Of a DNA stretch of 62,151 bases, positions 76 through 62,151 are shown piece by piece. This DNA comes from a virus (Duplodnaviria > Caudoviricetes), in the IMG/VR virus record IMGVR_UViG_3300004369_000015, positions 1-62,151 of that record. The stretch is one strand, 5' to 3'. A program made the position numbers and the translations under genes. The stretch's first letter is position 1. Every line of letters begins with the position of its first letter. Under the pieces are notes generated by a model. The model was not told the origin of the DNA, did not search any database, and saw nothing but the letters and a program-made list of their open reading frames with translations.

Positions 76-99
76 ACCTTTAACACCAAAGAGAAATGA
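75..99 (+). repeat. Cassette-junction repeat AACCTTTAACACCAAAGAGAAATGA (copy 4)
   Basis: Identical to 61461-61485; encodes TFNTKEK-stop overlapping the next ATG. Confidence 0.9.
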
Positions 100-230
100 C
101 ACAATTAGAATGGGAAGCAAAGCGAATGGGAAAGTTCACGGCTTCCGAGATACACAAGTTAATGGGTACACCAAGGAAGAAAGGTGAAACCCTCTCAGAG
201 ACCGCCAAATCGTTTGTCATTGAAGTTGGA
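96..230 (+). pseudogene. 5' fragment of a YqaJ/lambda-exonuclease-like gene, truncated at the island boundary
   Basis: EWEAKRMGKFTASEIHKLMG resembles the YqaJ N-terminus; after FVIEVG the frame runs into a terminator and antisense sequence. Confidence 0.7.
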
Positions 231-259
231 AGGGAGTGTCCTCAAAGACACTCCCTTTT
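231..259. terminator. Hairpin built on the 16-bp palindrome; probable terminator between the convergent arms
   Basis: AGGGAGTGTC-CTCAAA-GACACTCCCT followed by a T-run. Confidence 0.75.
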
Positions 260-53203: not shown

Positions 53204-53860
53204 ATGGCAAATCAAAAATCCGTATTTGAAACGTTGAGCGCAATCAACGTGAACGACAAAGTCGAAAAGAAAAACAACCTTACGTACCTGTCTTGGGCTT
53301 GGGCGTGGGGTGAAGTTAAGAAGAACTATCCTGATGCAACCTACGAGGTAATCAACGACCCTGCGTCAGGCACTCCTTACTTCTTTGACCAAGCACTTGG
53401 CTACTTGGTAATGACATCAGTAACTATCCAAGGTCAGACACTACCAATGTGGTTGCCTGTTATGGATGGTGCGAACAATGCAATGAAGCACGTTCCTTCT
53501 GAGATTGTAACTCGCTATGGCTCTAAGCCTGTGGCTGCTGCTACAATGTTCGATATCAACAAGACGTTGATGCGTTGTCTCACTAAGAACCTTGCGATGT
53601 TTGGTCTTGGTCACTACATCTATGCAGGTGATGACCTACCCGAGGTAGGCGAGGCAGTTCAGGTAACTCCCGCAAAGAAAACTCAACAAGAGGAAGCGTC
53701 ACTCAAGCCACTAAAGGTAGGCGATGAGAATTGGGGGCCGATTGAGAAGTGGGTTATCGAGAACAAAGAGATTGGCATCAAGCGTATCGTTGATACAATC
53801 GAGCGTAAGTACAAGGTGACTACTACGGTTAAGAACAAGATTCAAACTCTAATCAAGTAA
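53204..53860 (+). CDS. Sak3/DUF1071 Rad52-like single-strand annealing protein
   Basis: LTYLSWAWAW, MWLPVMD, INKTLMRCLTKNLAMFGLG. Confidence 0.85.
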   Translation: MANQKSVFETLSAINVNDKVEKKNNLTYLSWAWAWGEVKKNYPDATYEVINDPASGTPYFFDQALGYLVMTSVTIQGQTLPMWLPVMDGANNAMKHVPSEIVTRYGSKPVAAATMFDINKTLMRCLTKNLAMFGLGHYIYAGDDLPEVGEAVQVTPAKKTQQEEASLKPLKVGDENWGPIEKWVIENKEIGIKRIVDTIERKYKVTTTVKNKIQTLIK

Positions 53861-53863
53861 GTT

Positions 53864-54598
53864 ATGGAAGACGTAATCAAAATGCTCCAAGATGATGAGC
53901 ACTACTATGGTACGTTTGGTAATCAGTACCTAAGCAACTCAGACATCTCTGCACTCTTGAACAATCCAAAGATGTTCCGTGTGCCCGAGTCGGGTGACAA
54001 CCTTGCGTATGCAAAGGGACGTTACTTCCACCAACTAATCCTCGAGCCTGAGAAGGCAGAGCAAACTCAGTTCGTTGATGTATCAACTCGCACAACTAAA
54101 GCGTACAAGCAGTACATCGATGACAACGGGATTGACTTCTGCCTGTTGGAGAAAGAGGGAGAAGAGATTCGCCAACTCGTTACGGGTATGCTGAATAACT
54201 TTGACTTCCACGATAACATCAGAGCGACAGGTGTTCAGTACGAAGTACCATCTATCAAAGAGATTGAAGGTGTAATGTGGAAGGGTAAGGCCGACATCAT
54301 TCATCCTGAAATGATTATCGACCTGAAGACAACGGGTAACATCAATGACTTCAAGTGGTCTGCACGTAAGTACAACTACGATAGTCAGTGCTATATCTAC
54401 CAACAACTATTCGGTAAGCCATTAGTATTCTATGTGGTTGACAAGTCGACAGGTATGTTGGGTATGTTTAAACCCACTGAAGAATTTGTTCAGCGTGGAC
54501 ACGAGAAAGTAAAACGTGCCGTTGAGGTATACCATACTTTCTTTGGAGAAGCACCGACTAAAGATGTCAGGTCATACTACATAGATGAATCTCTTTAA
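53864..54598 (+). CDS. RecE/exonuclease VIII-like PD-(D/E)XK exonuclease
   Basis: LSNS, G..FH..ILEP, KGKAD, IDLKTT, Y..Q..IY. Confidence 0.85.
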   Translation: MEDVIKMLQDDEHYYGTFGNQYLSNSDISALLNNPKMFRVPESGDNLAYAKGRYFHQLILEPEKAEQTQFVDVSTRTTKAYKQYIDDNGIDFCLLEKEGEEIRQLVTGMLNNFDFHDNIRATGVQYEVPSIKEIEGVMWKGKADIIHPEMIIDLKTTGNINDFKWSARKYNYDSQCYIYQQLFGKPLVFYVVDKSTGMLGMFKPTEEFVQRGHEKVKRAVEVYHTFFGEAPTKDVRSYYIDESL

Positions 54599-59673: not shown

Positions 59674-59912
59674 CAGAGCAACAGATACAATCCAAGAGAA
59701 TCAAGCAACTTGAAAAGGAAGGATACTATGTAATCAAACTTGTCAAGACCAACAAGAATGGAATCCCTGATTTGATTGCTATTCCAAAAGACTCTAATGT
59801 ACTTTTTTGCGAGGTGAAAACACCAAGTGGTACGGTCTCAAAACTACAAGAGTTTAGATTAAAAGAATTAGAGGACTATGGATTTAGAACAGAAGTTTAT
59901 CGAGGAGAATAG
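59670..59912 (+). CDS. VRR-NUC nuclease / Holliday junction resolvase
   Basis: EQQIQ, GIPDL, EVKT, S.LQ. Confidence 0.85.
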   Translation: MTEQQIQSKRIKQLEKEGYYVIKLVKTNKNGIPDLIAIPKDSNVLFCEVKTPSGTVSKLQEFRLKELEDYGFRTEVYRGE

Positions 59913-60201
59913 ATTCGAGATTGGGGAGGAGTTCCTCTTAGATATCGAACACGTTCCCGTAAGAGACAGGCGAAAGATACTTAGGGCATTTGTATCTGTA
60001 CTGCAAGAACTCCCAATGATACAGGGATGGACGCAGTCTGTTGCGGGAGTAATCAAAAGAAACAACCCACTCTTTTACGAAATAGAATTTGTAAAAGATG
60101 AATCAAGTCCACCACTACTTCTTGGGTTTAAAGAGATAGGGAGTGATGAATACTTGGATATGGTTTTAGAAGACAATACAATTGAATATTATGAAATCTA
60201 A
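59878..60201 (+). CDS. Hypothetical protein
   Basis: ORF track. Confidence 0.6.
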   Translation: MDLEQKFIEENRFEIGEEFLLDIEHVPVRDRRKILRAFVSVLQELPMIQGWTQSVAGVIKRNNPLFYEIEFVKDESSPPLLLGFKEIGSDEYLDMVLEDNTIEYYEI

Positions 60202-60733
60202 TTTTTTACTTAAAACACCAACCGATGTGCGAGTTCTCATCAGGTTGATTAATGAAGTCTTGAACGTAGACATATTGGACAAGACACGTGAGCGTGAGCA
60301 CGTTAATGCACGTATTATCTTTTCATCTATATGCCGTGAGCGTGGGTATAGTCTGACAAAGATTGGTTCCTTTCTTGGTAAAGACCACTCATCAATCGTT
60401 CACTACTTGAAGAATGTTGATTGGTATTTAAAGACCGACAAGACATTCGCAAGTAACTATGGGTTAATCACTTCGAACTACTACGAGGGTTACGACCCCG
60501 TGTATGAGATGTCGTGCGATGAGATTAAAAAAGAATATATTGTTTTGAAAAATAAATTTAATTCGTTAAGTTTGGAATTAGAAGGTCTAAAAACTGACCA
60601 ACAAAAGTTCAAAGCACAGGAAGAAAGACTCTCACCGTTGTATAGAATGATAACAGAACGCACACTAAAAGGTTCAGAGAACTTTATAGAAAGGAGACTC
60701 AATCATTTCTTTAATGGTGTTTATGATGAATAA
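60191..60733 (+). CDS. Second DnaA domain IV-like DNA-binding protein, with coiled coil
   Basis: TREREHVNAR...SLTKIGSFLGKDHSSIVH. Confidence 0.75.
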   Translation: MKSNFLLKTPTDVRVLIRLINEVLNVDILDKTREREHVNARIIFSSICRERGYSLTKIGSFLGKDHSSIVHYLKNVDWYLKTDKTFASNYGLITSNYYEGYDPVYEMSCDEIKKEYIVLKNKFNSLSLELEGLKTDQQKFKAQEERLSPLYRMITERTLKGSENFIERRLNHFFNGVYDE

Positions 60734-60738
60734 ATAAA

Positions 60739-60930
60739 ATGACTAAGCCATCAGCGTTCGAGAATGAAAGATTGAATCACATCAACAACCTGATGGACAA
60801 TATCAACGACTCTACGTCTGATATATATGAGCACTTAGTTGATAGAGAGTTCGATAAACTTCTTGTCTGCTTGAATGATTTAATATCACAACTCGAGGAT
60901 ATAAAAAATTCACTACAAGATGAGCCATAA
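60739..60930 (+). CDS. Small hypothetical protein
   Basis: ORF track. Confidence 0.6.
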   Translation: MTKPSAFENERLNHINNLMDNINDSTSDIYEHLVDREFDKLLVCLNDLISQLEDIKNSLQDEP

Positions 60931-61327
60931 GAAGTGCACGAATTGTGGTGTAGAAAAACCTGAATCAGAATACTATCTTACAGGTAAATACACACAGGCA
61001 GTTAGGAATATACGAAGAGCAAAGTGCAAGAAATGTGTAAACGATGTCAAGGACAAAAGACGTTGGGATATACGTGATAAGGTTAGGGAACACAAGCGGG
61101 GGCTTAGTTGCGAAACCTGTGGCTATTCCAAGAAGACTCACCCTGAAACGTTTTCAGATAGGGCCTTGGAGTTCCACCACCCCAACGATGATAAGGACTT
61201 CAGTGTAGGTGACGCAATAACAAATGGAGTTTCATACGAGAAGATAATGTCTGAGATGAAGAAGTGTGTAGTCCTATGCTCTCGATGCCACGCAGAAGAA
61301 CACGACAAAAAAAATGGAAGAAAATAA
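60920..61327 (+). CDS. HNH endonuclease
   Basis: CxxC pairs, LEFHH, KCVVLCSRCH..H. Confidence 0.85.
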   Translation: MSHKKCTNCGVEKPESEYYLTGKYTQAVRNIRRAKCKKCVNDVKDKRRWDIRDKVREHKRGLSCETCGYSKKTHPETFSDRALEFHHPNDDKDFSVGDAITNGVSYEKIMSEMKKCVVLCSRCHAEEHDKKNGRK

Positions 61328-61409
61328 CAAACAAACCCTATTAGAGTTTATATTTGCTTTTCTGCTCAATGCAGGAATCTTATATATGTTGATTAAGATT
61401 TTCGGTTAA
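61314..61409 (+). CDS. 31-aa single-TM peptide
   Basis: Translated by hand; the stop codon lies in the island flanking repeat. Confidence 0.5.
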   Translation: MEENNKQTLLEFIFAFLLNAGILYMLIKIFG

Positions 61410-61410
61410 G

Positions 61411-61485
61411 TTGGATGGTTGGCACAATCAATGGGCTGACGCAAATGACTACTACAACGAAACCTTTAACACCAAAGAGAAATGA
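61411..61485 (+). pseudogene. 3' gene remnant LDGWHNQWADANDYYNETFNTKEK
   Basis: No ATG in frame (stop at 61390); YYNETF is an ending I recall from small flavobacterial phage proteins. Confidence 0.55.
61461..61485 (+). repeat. Cassette-junction repeat (copy 1)
   Basis: AACCTTTAACACCAAAGAGAAATGA. Confidence 0.9.
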
Positions 61486-61700
61486 AAAAGAAACTAAAAT
61501 CATTAGATGAACACAATTCAAATTCTTGGAGCAATTATTCTTCAATGTTTGAAAACTCACCAAAACCAAACGGAATTGCTTGCCCAAAGTGTGGTGAGGA
61601 ATTGATGGATAGTCAACCTATGGCGACATTAACATCCCATCCACCAAAGAAAGACATACATTGTCCTTCTTGTAATTATCGTGGATATAGAATTGCTTAA
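61482..61700 (+). CDS. Zn-ribbon protein (72 aa)
   Basis: CPKC...CPSC; ATG supplied by the repeat. Confidence 0.7.
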   Translation: MKKKLKSLDEHNSNSWSNYSSMFENSPKPNGIACPKCGEELMDSQPMATLTSHPPKKDIHCPSCNYRGYRIA

Positions 61701-61716
61701 CACCAAAGAGAAATGA
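61697..61716 (+). repeat. Cassette-junction repeat (copy 2)
   Basis: TTAACACCAAAGAGAAATGA. Confidence 0.9.
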
Positions 61717-61850
61717 AAAAGTTCAAATGGGGCAGAATTATGACATCAAACCAGATTGGATTGATGGTTGCTTGGGGAACAAGTGTTATACCAAACAGAA
61801 AGTGCATCTGTATTGAGGTTCCTTTTCTTATTATACAGATTTACCTTTAA
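61713..61850 (+). CDS. 45-aa hypothetical protein
   Basis: Translated by hand; start and stop both lie in repeats. Confidence 0.6.
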   Translation: MKKFKWGRIMTSNQIGLMVAWGTSVIPNRKCICIEVPFLIIQIYL

Positions 61851-61866
61851 TACCAAAGAGAAGTAA
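61843..61866 (+). repeat. Cassette-junction repeat (copy 3, variant)
   Basis: ACCTTTAATACCAAAGAGAAGTAA. Confidence 0.85.
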
Positions 61867-61872
61867 TAATAT

Positions 61873-62000
61873 AGTCAGGTGGCGGAATTGGATAGACGCT
61901 AAGAGTTGGATTTAGGTCGCTAACATTCCCGTTCGAGTCGGGCAAAGTGGGCCAACTAGGAGAAACTAAGACCATACAGGTTCGAATCCTGTCCTGACTA
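61873..62000 (+). ncRNA. 128-nt tRNA-like RNA with Leu-type D arm and an expanded region replacing the anticodon arm
   Basis: AGTCAGG/CCTGACT acceptor; TGGCGGAATTGGATAGACGC; ACAGG-TTCGAAT-CCTGT. Confidence 0.75.
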
Positions 62001-62016
62001 CTAAAACAAAATAGAA

Positions 62017-62151
62017 ATGAAAGTCTTTTTCCATAAAACAAAAAGCCTACCGACAGCAACAACTATTCAAGAAAAGAACAAATGGGAGTTGCAGTTGCTT
62101 GTAGATGCAATCGTTCAGAAAGCGGATGCCCTTGGGTTTACCGTGAACATA
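62017..62151 (+). CDS. 52-aa protein spanning the circular join (stop at 97-99), ending TFNTKEK
   Basis: Open frame MKVFFHK...GFTVNITFNTKEK across the overlap. Confidence 0.65.
   Translation, partial: MKVFFHKTKSLPTATTIQEKNKWELQLLVDAIVQKADALGFTVNI

Follow-up and report, generated by a model that had tools for sequence, protein, structure and literature searches.

Probable capture of a mini-gene cassette array fragment by a tailed phage, with both illegitimate joints resolved to the base

Introduction

Morons, and the novel joints that illegitimate recombination leaves in the mosaic genomes of tailed phages, are reportedly a concept of Hendrix and colleagues. As a rule, such joints are old and blurred. 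Here we describe a new and unusually well-resolved instance of illegitimate recombination, in which both joints of one event can be read to the base: an 891-bp insert in the genome of a tailed phage (Duplodnaviria; Caudoviricetes), the complete virus record IMGVR_UViG_3300004369_000015 of IMG/VR, whose entire 62,151 bases form the window of this analysis. Most probably, the insert was acquired recently and is part of a mini-gene cassette array of unrelated uncultured phages, joined illegitimately between the gene of a 31-residue peptide and a terminator-like hairpin. Its small genes are accompanied by copies of a short motif, TTTAACACCAAAGAGAAATG, which recurs in many other uncultured phages.

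How does this locus compare with the systems described so far? Passages of PMC2327257 discuss morons and illegitimate novel joints in phage mosaics. Like these, the insert is extra DNA between elements that are adjacent in relatives, with joints of minimal or no homology and without a site-specific recombinase; unlike them, it is a fragment of an operon-like array that cuts a gene at each end, and its joints are resolved to the base together with their donor context. No promoter or terminator of the moron kind was found in the insert by a consensus scan for sigma-70 promoters, other promoter types, including those of Bacteroidota, lying outside the scan: the sole promoter-like site (61847-61875) overlaps only the degenerate motif copy C, and no terminator-like site was returned by the consensus scan within the insert.

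For the motif itself, the closest described analogue would be the PeSL of T4-type phages, which passages of PMC2839356 and PMC4122927 describe as conserved short intergenic repeats that precede small ORFans in hyperplastic regions, reach to the ribosome site and start codon of the following gene, and mark points of module swapping between phages. Judged by these passages, both elements precede small open reading frames (ORFs), end at the next start codon and mark exchange points, since the block similarity seen here starts and stops at the motif. PeSL are, however, sequence-variable composites of a sigma-70 promoter and a stem-loop terminator, whereas the present motif is a near-invariant 20-23 nt that often doubles as the end of the upstream gene (53 of 117 evaluable copies) and spans at least 29 backbone groups. 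The motif is a repeat before ORFans, in which the consensus scan found no sigma-70 promoter with a stem-loop, and on reading no inverted repeat or stem-loop is evident in its 23 nt.

Two further systems invite comparison. Microhomology-mediated break-induced replication and fork stalling and template switching (MMBIR/FoSTeS), to which passages of PMC9233990 on templated insertions at the human Xq27.1 palindrome lend an example, likewise place a foreign copy at a palindrome, with a few bases of microhomology and a few duplicated recipient bases; they act in cellular chromosomes, while the template here would be a co-infecting phage, as judged from junction anatomy. Integron cassettes are small, promoterless, arranged in tandem in one orientation and expressed from upstream, as would apply here too, but the present cassettes have no attC-like imperfect inverted repeats, and their shared element is a 5' start site rather than a 3' recombination site. 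We therefore reject membership among the integron cassettes, there being no integrase-sized ORF in or beside the insert.

Results and Discussion

The insert and its two joints

As positions 1-75 of the record equal 62077-62151, the unique, collapsed genome measures 62,076 bp. Its structural genes lie on the - strand from 266 to about 44,500, the last of them encoding a 2,776-aa protein and ending at 266; the early and replication genes lie on the + strand from about 46,100 onward and encode a BT4734-type primase, an SNF2 helicase, a VRR-NUC nuclease, a DnaA-C-like protein, a Sak protein and a PDDEXK nuclease. Both blocks converge on the hairpin. The insert locus lies at the end of the early operon and continues across the arbitrary ends of the record (Table 1). 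The 75-bp terminal repeat falls within the insert, in its 52-aa ORF, and stops exactly where motif copy D starts at 76; it probably marks an assembly break beside shared sequence rather than true genome ends.

For comparison, an exact search with the 20-mer TTTAACACCAAAGAGAAATG yielded at least 119 viral contig stretches containing 135 copies, and a second exact search added seven viral contigs with the right-end gene (loci and contigs carry L numbers, sequencing runs X numbers). A metagenome search with a CCAG-containing 30-mer of the insert provided five further contigs (L210-L214). In BLAST against the motif-bearing loci, similarity begins exactly at 61408 and ends at 224, and none reaches into the flanks. 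The left end is matched by L126 (98.9-100% over 87-88 nt, 61408-61494), L091 (98.8%, to 61488) and L113 (93.8%), the interior by L170 (95.0% over 61457-61718 and 88.6% over 61697-61862), the tRNA-like gene by L191 (~80%), and the right end by L091 (84% over 75-224).

What do the joints themselves disclose? On the left, all three contigs that cover the joint (L126, L091 and L113) read AAGTTGGA and the same following letters inside a longer open gene, and are unlike the window upstream of it. On the right, all eight donor contigs run from a common ...ATTGAA into a complete 204-aa YqaJ protein, with letters that differ from the window, which turns after 224 to GTTGGA and the hairpin. We read the left joint as an 8-bp microhomology and the right one as 2 bp (AA), with the left AAGTTGGA donor sequence and the right AAGTTGGA the recipient's own. 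Since the 8-mer is native at the left end of the donor and missing at its right end, the pair speaks for microhomology and not for a target-site duplication, which answers a question that the preliminary description of this DNA had posed; and as a chance match between the first eight bases of the donor and the eight recipient bases at the other joint has a probability of about 4^-8, we take the match to be part of the mechanism.

The same pair of repeats could be taken for the 8-bp target-site duplication of a small non-autonomous transposon, to which perfect direct repeats on both sides would be well suited. Yet the left copy belongs to a donor gene in each of the three contigs, terminal inverted repeats are absent (aligned locally, the two ends score 6 at best, while shuffled sequence averages 6.4), both ends cut genes, and the insert, with ORFs of 24-72 aa, encodes no transposase, so that transposition is hardly credible. 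The case thus separates microhomology capture from transposition, and the data come down on the side of the former. The repeat would not suffice for this by itself: on the + strand AAGTTGGA occurs at the two joints only, 891 bp apart once the terminal repeat is collapsed, just as first described, but on both strands it has four matches (two on the - strand) against 3.0 expected, and the genome holds 2,436 identical 8-mer pairs 500-1500 bp apart, which puts the bare repeat at chance level. Its meaning derives from the comparison with other contigs.

The interior of the insert has a history outside this genome as well. The order of zinc-ribbon gene, 45-aa ORF, tRNA-like gene and 52-aa ORF is repeated in the four metagenome contigs that span it, with 94.0-98.5% identity over 699-727 nt from motif copy A to copy D, and the fifth, cut at its end, has the same interior from 61656 on. 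Their similarity ends at motif copy D (97-99) in all five and begins near copy A (61450-61478) in all four that reach there. Both genes that the insert cuts, as had been suspected, are complete in other contigs, the left one in a family of about 70-80 aa and the right one as the YqaJ protein. L091, a contig of the donor type, has a different backbone with a DnaB helicase, a C5 methylase, a Mom-like protein and a terminase.

A compositional marker

The genome is almost wholly purged of seven four-base words: AGCT, CATG, GATC and CTGG are absent, CCAG and CTAG occur once each and CGCG four times, where 61-252 of each are expected (for CCAG ~177-181 and for CTAG ~135-231, under two models). Whether it reflects extreme restriction-site avoidance or another constraint, this purge makes the genome serve as a compositional marker, as two words are present only in the insert: the sole CCAG (61751) and the sole CTAG (61956) both lie there, as originally noticed, while the 61,185 bp outside it contain no GATC, CTAG, CCAG or CTGG. 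Backbone relatives share the purge (median 0 per kb for GATC, CCAG and CTGG), and motif-bearing loci do not (for four of the words, a median of 6.6 per kb); L091 encodes a C5 methylase and a Mom-like protein instead. Both exceptions are native to the donor: the tRNA-like gene with the CTAG is the same in five contigs, and the CCAG forms part of the 30-mer that served in the metagenome search. Loss of sites after the transfer is not demonstrable, because the donor segments homologous to the insert contain no purged word.

Ancestral arrangement in the recipient lineage

A helicase search of IMG/VR returned 481 related stretches, of which the best 80, at 59-72% protein identity, were kept as backbone relatives. 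Their gene order runs from helicase through VRR-NUC, a 107-aa gene, the DnaA-C-like gene and a 63-aa gene into a variable stretch, followed by the end of the big gene on the opposite strand. In the 17 of the 80 loci that could be aligned up to that end, the variable stretch measures 524-1326 bp, against 1,412 bp in the window, and contains the lineage's 16-bp palindrome GTGTCYTYRARGACAC in seven. A hydrophobic ORF of 30-31 aa is the last gene of the early operon in four of the 17 (L003, L014, L015 and L016, with L015 and L016 near-identical) and resembles the 31-aa gene of the window at 29-41% identity (pairwise BLASTP E 3e-6); it leads into the palindrome in L003, L015 and L016, while in L014 it is the last before the big gene. 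The two elements that flank the insert are thus adjacent in related phages. This gene order, in distant relatives, supports the small gene followed by the palindrome as the ancestral arrangement, matching the empty site that had been reconstructed by deleting the insert.

Might the array instead be ancestral to the lineage and have been lost in all sampled relatives? The region between the 63-aa and 2,776-aa genes is indeed variable (524-1326 bp), a tRNA-like gene of the same family lies in that region of L075, and L025 has a related array elsewhere. Against this stand the genes truncated at both ends, the near-perfect identity to unrelated backbones in a phage whose own backbone differs by 28-41% in the helicase protein, the confinement of the purged words to the insert, and the lack of the motif at the corresponding place in the remaining 79 relative loci. 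By tblastn (E <= 1e-3), the ORFs of the insert were found in none of the 80 loci, an outcome of the comparison with relatives that had been proposed at the outset. We regard an ancestral array as very improbable. The initial suggestion that a piece of another phage was captured is supported by four independent lines of evidence: the exact limits of similarity, the complete donor genes, the purged words and the gene order of the relatives.

Assembly evidence

Parts of the window are held by 24 public runs, four of which (X1, X3, X4 and X19) were compared in detail across the left joint and the insert up to the end of the record. Three of the 24, all of one study from which the record may derive, have at least 0.98 of the sampled words; in the remaining 21, X4 and X19 among them, which come from 17 further studies, the share is 0.25-0.34. 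In X1 and X3, a 2,229-nt contig with a depth of 19.2 and 17.6, respectively, covers 59800-61437 without difference and extends 30 nt beyond the left joint, which is thus present in reads at backbone depth. X1 has an additional contig in which 61408 is preceded by the native context of the donor, so that recipient and donor types co-occur there. In X4 (freshwater) and X19 (seawater), 61466-62005 is found at 0-2 differences, while 59800-61379 is without cover, that is, the backbone is not seen there.

Could the insert, or its interior, derive from such a co-occurring phage by an assembly error, threaded into the record via shared sequence and closed into a circle artificially? In two runs the insert is about 1.8-2.3 times as deep as the backbone, unitig breaks coincide with the motif and with the 3' end of the tRNA-like gene, the ends of the record fall inside the insert directly beside motif copy D, and the backbone-free runs X4 and X19 hold the same cassettes at 0-2 differences. 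Such a chimera seems nonetheless quite improbable to us, given that a contig at backbone depth extends 30 insert bases past 61407 in two runs, that overlaps of 8 and 2 bp would be too short for a mis-join in a de Bruijn graph, that in the record the YqaJ remnant, despite an identity of only 84-93% to any other contig, runs directly on into the hairpin and the 2,776-aa gene, and that independent metagenome contigs have the same interior order. Co-occurring phages with the same cassettes account for the surplus depth; the coverage step, which the preliminary description would have taken to speak for a chimera, is present and thereby explained rather than removed.

Several points weigh against a capture as proposed here. 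No single contig has the entire 891 bp in donor context. The bridging contig ends 30 nt past the left joint, one short of the 31-letter bridging threshold, and the depth within the insert is 33.5-36.1 in X1 and 41 in X3, compared with 19.2 and 17.6 in the backbone; X1 and X3 are perhaps the source of the record and then not independent of it. While the left joint is thus borne out by reads, the right one appears in no other viral contig and rests on the record. Likewise, the empty site is borne out as a gene order but not as a sequence: no empty-site genome was found, with no hits of the left flank in the metagenome and of the right flank in the viral-contig searches, which is not evidence of absence, and with nearest relatives at only 59-72% helicase identity, the site is deduced from gene order. 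Palindromes as general insertion hotspots were rejected: of 18 indels between relatives at least 85% identical, only one falls within 30 bp of such a site, the random rate being 3.4%, and three others, 57-87 bp away, are the presence or absence of tRNA-like genes. Finally, the copying step set out below is one that we infer from the anatomy of the junctions.

Route of the capture

The most economical route would be copy-choice in a single event during co-infection. A growing strand would quit the recipient at the base of the hairpin, copy about 0.9 kb of donor DNA and return 6-8 bases upstream of its point of departure, so that the 8-mer was copied again. One switch would use the 8-bp match and the other the 2-bp match; which came first would depend on the strand that was growing, the mirror order on the opposite strand giving the same product. 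The insert is bordered in the window by the recipient's GTTGGA at either end, and the recipient bases that correspond to the 8-bp match and to the 2-bp match overlap. Owing to this overlap, annealing of one donor strand in a single step, as in recombineering, was rejected. The event may have been started by Sak, by fork stalling at the hairpin or by a nuclease break.

The same event could have had a different chemistry, with a double-strand break near the hairpin that was resected and a donor fragment annealed at the 8-bp match. The phage encodes candidate annealing proteins in its Sak, a single-strand annealing protein (53204-53860, E 9e-52), and the PDDEXK/DUF3799 nuclease (53864-54598), and passages of PMC2327257 report that RecET-type systems recombine at 5-13 bp. 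Candidates for the break are a hairpin-cutting nuclease or the HNH endonuclease whose gene lies 81 bp upstream of the insert and is sporadic in the lineage (two of the 80 relative loci by tblastn, L052 and L064), a possible source of a nearby break that was overlooked when the insert was first described as lacking integrase and transposase. However, one two-ended break does not on its own give rise to a second copy of the recipient's GTTGGA, and the two arms, overlapping on the recipient, would be unfit for one-step single-strand annealing. We consider break-and-join unlikely, a variant with ends from different genome copies being possible.

As for recombinases, the statement just quoted stands for the insert: its ORFs measure 24-72 aa, a Pfam scan of the 72-aa ORF and the YqaJ remnant, with the 45-aa and 52-aa ORFs outside it, gave no transposase or integrase, and no integrase-sized ORF lies in or beside the insert, the window not having been scanned as a whole for integrases. 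The fragment sits in sense orientation, and its cassettes would be read from the early operon, each supplying its own 20-23-nt start-site motif. The HNH gene occupies the slot in which nine of the 17 alignable relatives carry a conserved ORF of about 130-141 aa.

Cassette arrays and their motif

In the window the motif has four copies, with 0, 1, 3 and 0 mismatches, all in the insert and on the + strand, where 0.01 would be expected in the window. At up to three mismatches, 126 loci contain 240 sites, always on one strand per locus, with a median spacing of 225 bp (99% below 1 kb) and a median length of 64 aa for the following ORF. In five large records of 76-212 kb, the copies cluster within 0.1-1.4 kb. 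The 207 cassette proteins cluster in 92 families, of which 62 are singletons; the most populous comprises 43 proteins from 38 loci, the left-end fragment of the window among them. Eight cassette proteins, seven from other loci and the zinc-ribbon ORF of the window, were scanned and gave no known function.

The motif is followed by A in 129 of 135 copies, forming an ATGA overlap of stop and start, and preceded by ACC in 107. Of 117 evaluable copies, 53 also supply the final seven codons and the stop of the gene upstream and 64 do not; kept in either case, the motif is conserved at the nucleotide level. According to passages of PMC6847099, Bacteroidota do without Shine-Dalgarno sites and prefer A at -3. 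The motif, which likewise lacks a Shine-Dalgarno sequence, has A at -1 to -3 and could act as an expression signal for these bacteria. Among GTDB genomes, its 23-mer occurs in six stretches, four of them from metagenome-assembled genomes of Bacteroidota. The phages that carry such arrays probably infect Bacteroidota.

Loci of at least 8 kb fall into at least 29 backbone groups by nucleotide similarity. A 41-nt motif region has no significant match in cultured-phage records (two at chance level, E 0.2-0.6), and 60900-62151 has no DNA match there; we found no description of such a cassette system in the literature searched. We tentatively suggest, as a possibility short of an even chance, that (ACC)TTTAACACCAAAGAGAAATG(A) defines a new recombinase-free cassette system among many unrelated uncultured phages, serving as start site, stop/start coupling and homology linker, and that the window records a founding entry by template switching. 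The motif would be long enough for annealing proteins, and mini-genes of ~225 bp and the conserved 128-nt tRNA-like RNA would be shuffled there; the window would capture the rarer founding step, in which an array enters a naive, linker-free lineage by template switching at a hairpin. The locus also brings to light a widespread cassette architecture of uncultured aquatic phages, made up of an invariant start-site motif, genes of ~64 aa and a strictly conserved tRNA-like RNA, which could supply genes for host takeover or counter-defence.

Two observations on other arrays may be added. In about a dozen copies a tandem CAAAGTGTAAA(A/G)T repeat stands before the motif (L094, L120, L129, L138, L140, L149, L152, L155, L165, L196 and L197), which may be a promoter or operator of the first cassette of the array. 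L025, a backbone relative, has an array of the same small-protein family at 900-2100, about 6 kb upstream of the helicase; its gene junctions are built on another repeat, which contains a canonical GGAGG ribosome site, with a ...YGGNK stop overlapping ATG. One copy of the window motif is present as well.

tRNA-like genes

The third cassette of the insert is an RNA gene. It matches the Rfam tRNA model (RF00005) with 31.2 bits, against a gathering score of 29, in its acceptor, D and T arms, while about 63 extra nt replace the normal anticodon arm (fold z-score -0.45); ARAGORN does not call it. All its 128 nt are identical in L210-L214, whose flanks differ by 1.5-6%. It belongs to a family of 73-128 nt that occurs both in backbone relatives and in donor-like contigs and shares the acceptor stem, D arm and T arm around a hypervariable middle. 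We take its D arm to resemble that of tRNA-Leu. In L071 and L075 the long central stem has compensatory changes, and in L044/L046, L038 and L042 the tRNA-like gene lies at most 5 nt from the palindrome.

In L089, L157, L190, L219 and L220, ordinary tRNA genes (Arg-Leu-Met sets) or a tRNA-like gene terminate right at the motif's ACC, which makes RNA genes, too, cassettes of the same arrays. In the window, the degenerate copy C precedes the tRNA-like gene, an arrangement that recurs in L191.

Features of the locus

The coordinates are collected in Table 1. The zinc-ribbon ORF, whose Pfam matches are weak and all below the curated cut-offs, has 93% aa identity to L170; it occurs in L210, L211 and L214, and most of the gene is DNA-similar in L213. 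The 45-aa product is the same in L210-L214 and 91% identical to L170. The 52-aa ORF has homologous DNA in metagenome contigs L210-L214, and a 23-mer taken from it has no exact match in IMG/VR viral contigs.

Past 224, the frame of the YqaJ remnant runs through the hairpin into unrelated sequence. The remnant is 97.7% identical to L203 in amino acids and 93.3% in nucleotides to L203, L208 and L211; the full donor protein matches PF09588 (E 3.5e-12), while the remnant alone has no Pfam match. Its homology, confined to residues 1-43, marks 96-224 as a gene remnant and not a complete YqaJ domain of ~150 residues.

Table 1. Coordinates of the insert, its surroundings and related features. Positions refer to the window unless a locus is given.
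Feature	Position	Strand	Remarks
HNH endonuclease gene, 135 aa	60920..61327	+	phrog_2255, E 1.5e-25; context, outside the insert
31-aa hydrophobic peptide gene, last ancestral gene of the early operon	61314..61409	+	stop 61407-61409 overlaps the left AAGTTGGA
Left AAGTTGGA, first 8 bases of the insert, left-junction microhomology	61408..61415	+	from comparison with L126, L091, L113
3' remnant (~25 codons homologous) of small-protein gene	61393..61485	+	ends ...YYNETFNTKEK; 5' part lost; ~70-80-aa family
Motif copy A, ACC + TTTAACACCAAAGAGAAATG	61462..61484	+	exact 20-mer; closes with the start codon of cassette 1
Cassette 1, 72-aa zinc-ribbon ORF	61482..61700	+	phrog_30869, E 2.5e-7
Motif copy B	61696..61715	+	1 mismatch
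Cassette 2, 45-aa ORF	61713..61850	+	contains CCAG 61751
Motif copy C, degenerate	61846..61865	+	3 mismatches, without ATG; precedes tRNA-like gene
Cassette 3, 128-nt tRNA-like gene	61873..62000	+	Rfam; contains CTAG 61956
Cassette 4, 52-aa ORF	62017..62151	+	spans the record ends, finishes at 98; contains the 75-bp terminal repeat
Motif copy D	76..98	+	0 mismatches; begins where the 75-bp terminal repeat ends
5' remnant (43 codons) of YqaJ-type exonuclease gene	96..224	+	complete 204-aa protein in 8 of 8 contigs
Right AAGTTGGA, the recipient's own copy	223..230	+	only AA common with donor; 8 donor contigs diverge after 224
Terminator-like hairpin on the lineage's 16-bp palindrome	228..259	+	between the convergent early operon and the 2776-aa gene
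tRNA-like family members	L075:12459-12566, L071:4343-4450, L044:3866-3974, L041:3691-3763, L038:4525-4617, L042:1677-1751, L191:8914-9010		
GTGTCYTYRARGACAC sites	236-251, 2664, 5548, 12683, 21173, 28315, 41195, 43841, 45871, 46805		
GTGTCYTYRARGACAC sites, continued	47787, 48466, 49353, 49815, 50944, 52407, 54615, 57306, 59085		

The palindrome noted beside the insert proved to be a 13-pair hairpin with a T-rich tail, scored as terminator-like on the + strand. Its 16-bp core, GTGTCYTYRARGACAC, is found at about 19 places in the window (37 strand matches, where 1.2 would be expected) and is confined to the recipient lineage among the loci compared; it could be a terminator, operator or promoter hairpin. 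One site lies inside the helicase gene, and many of the listed relatives match at the corresponding position of theirs.

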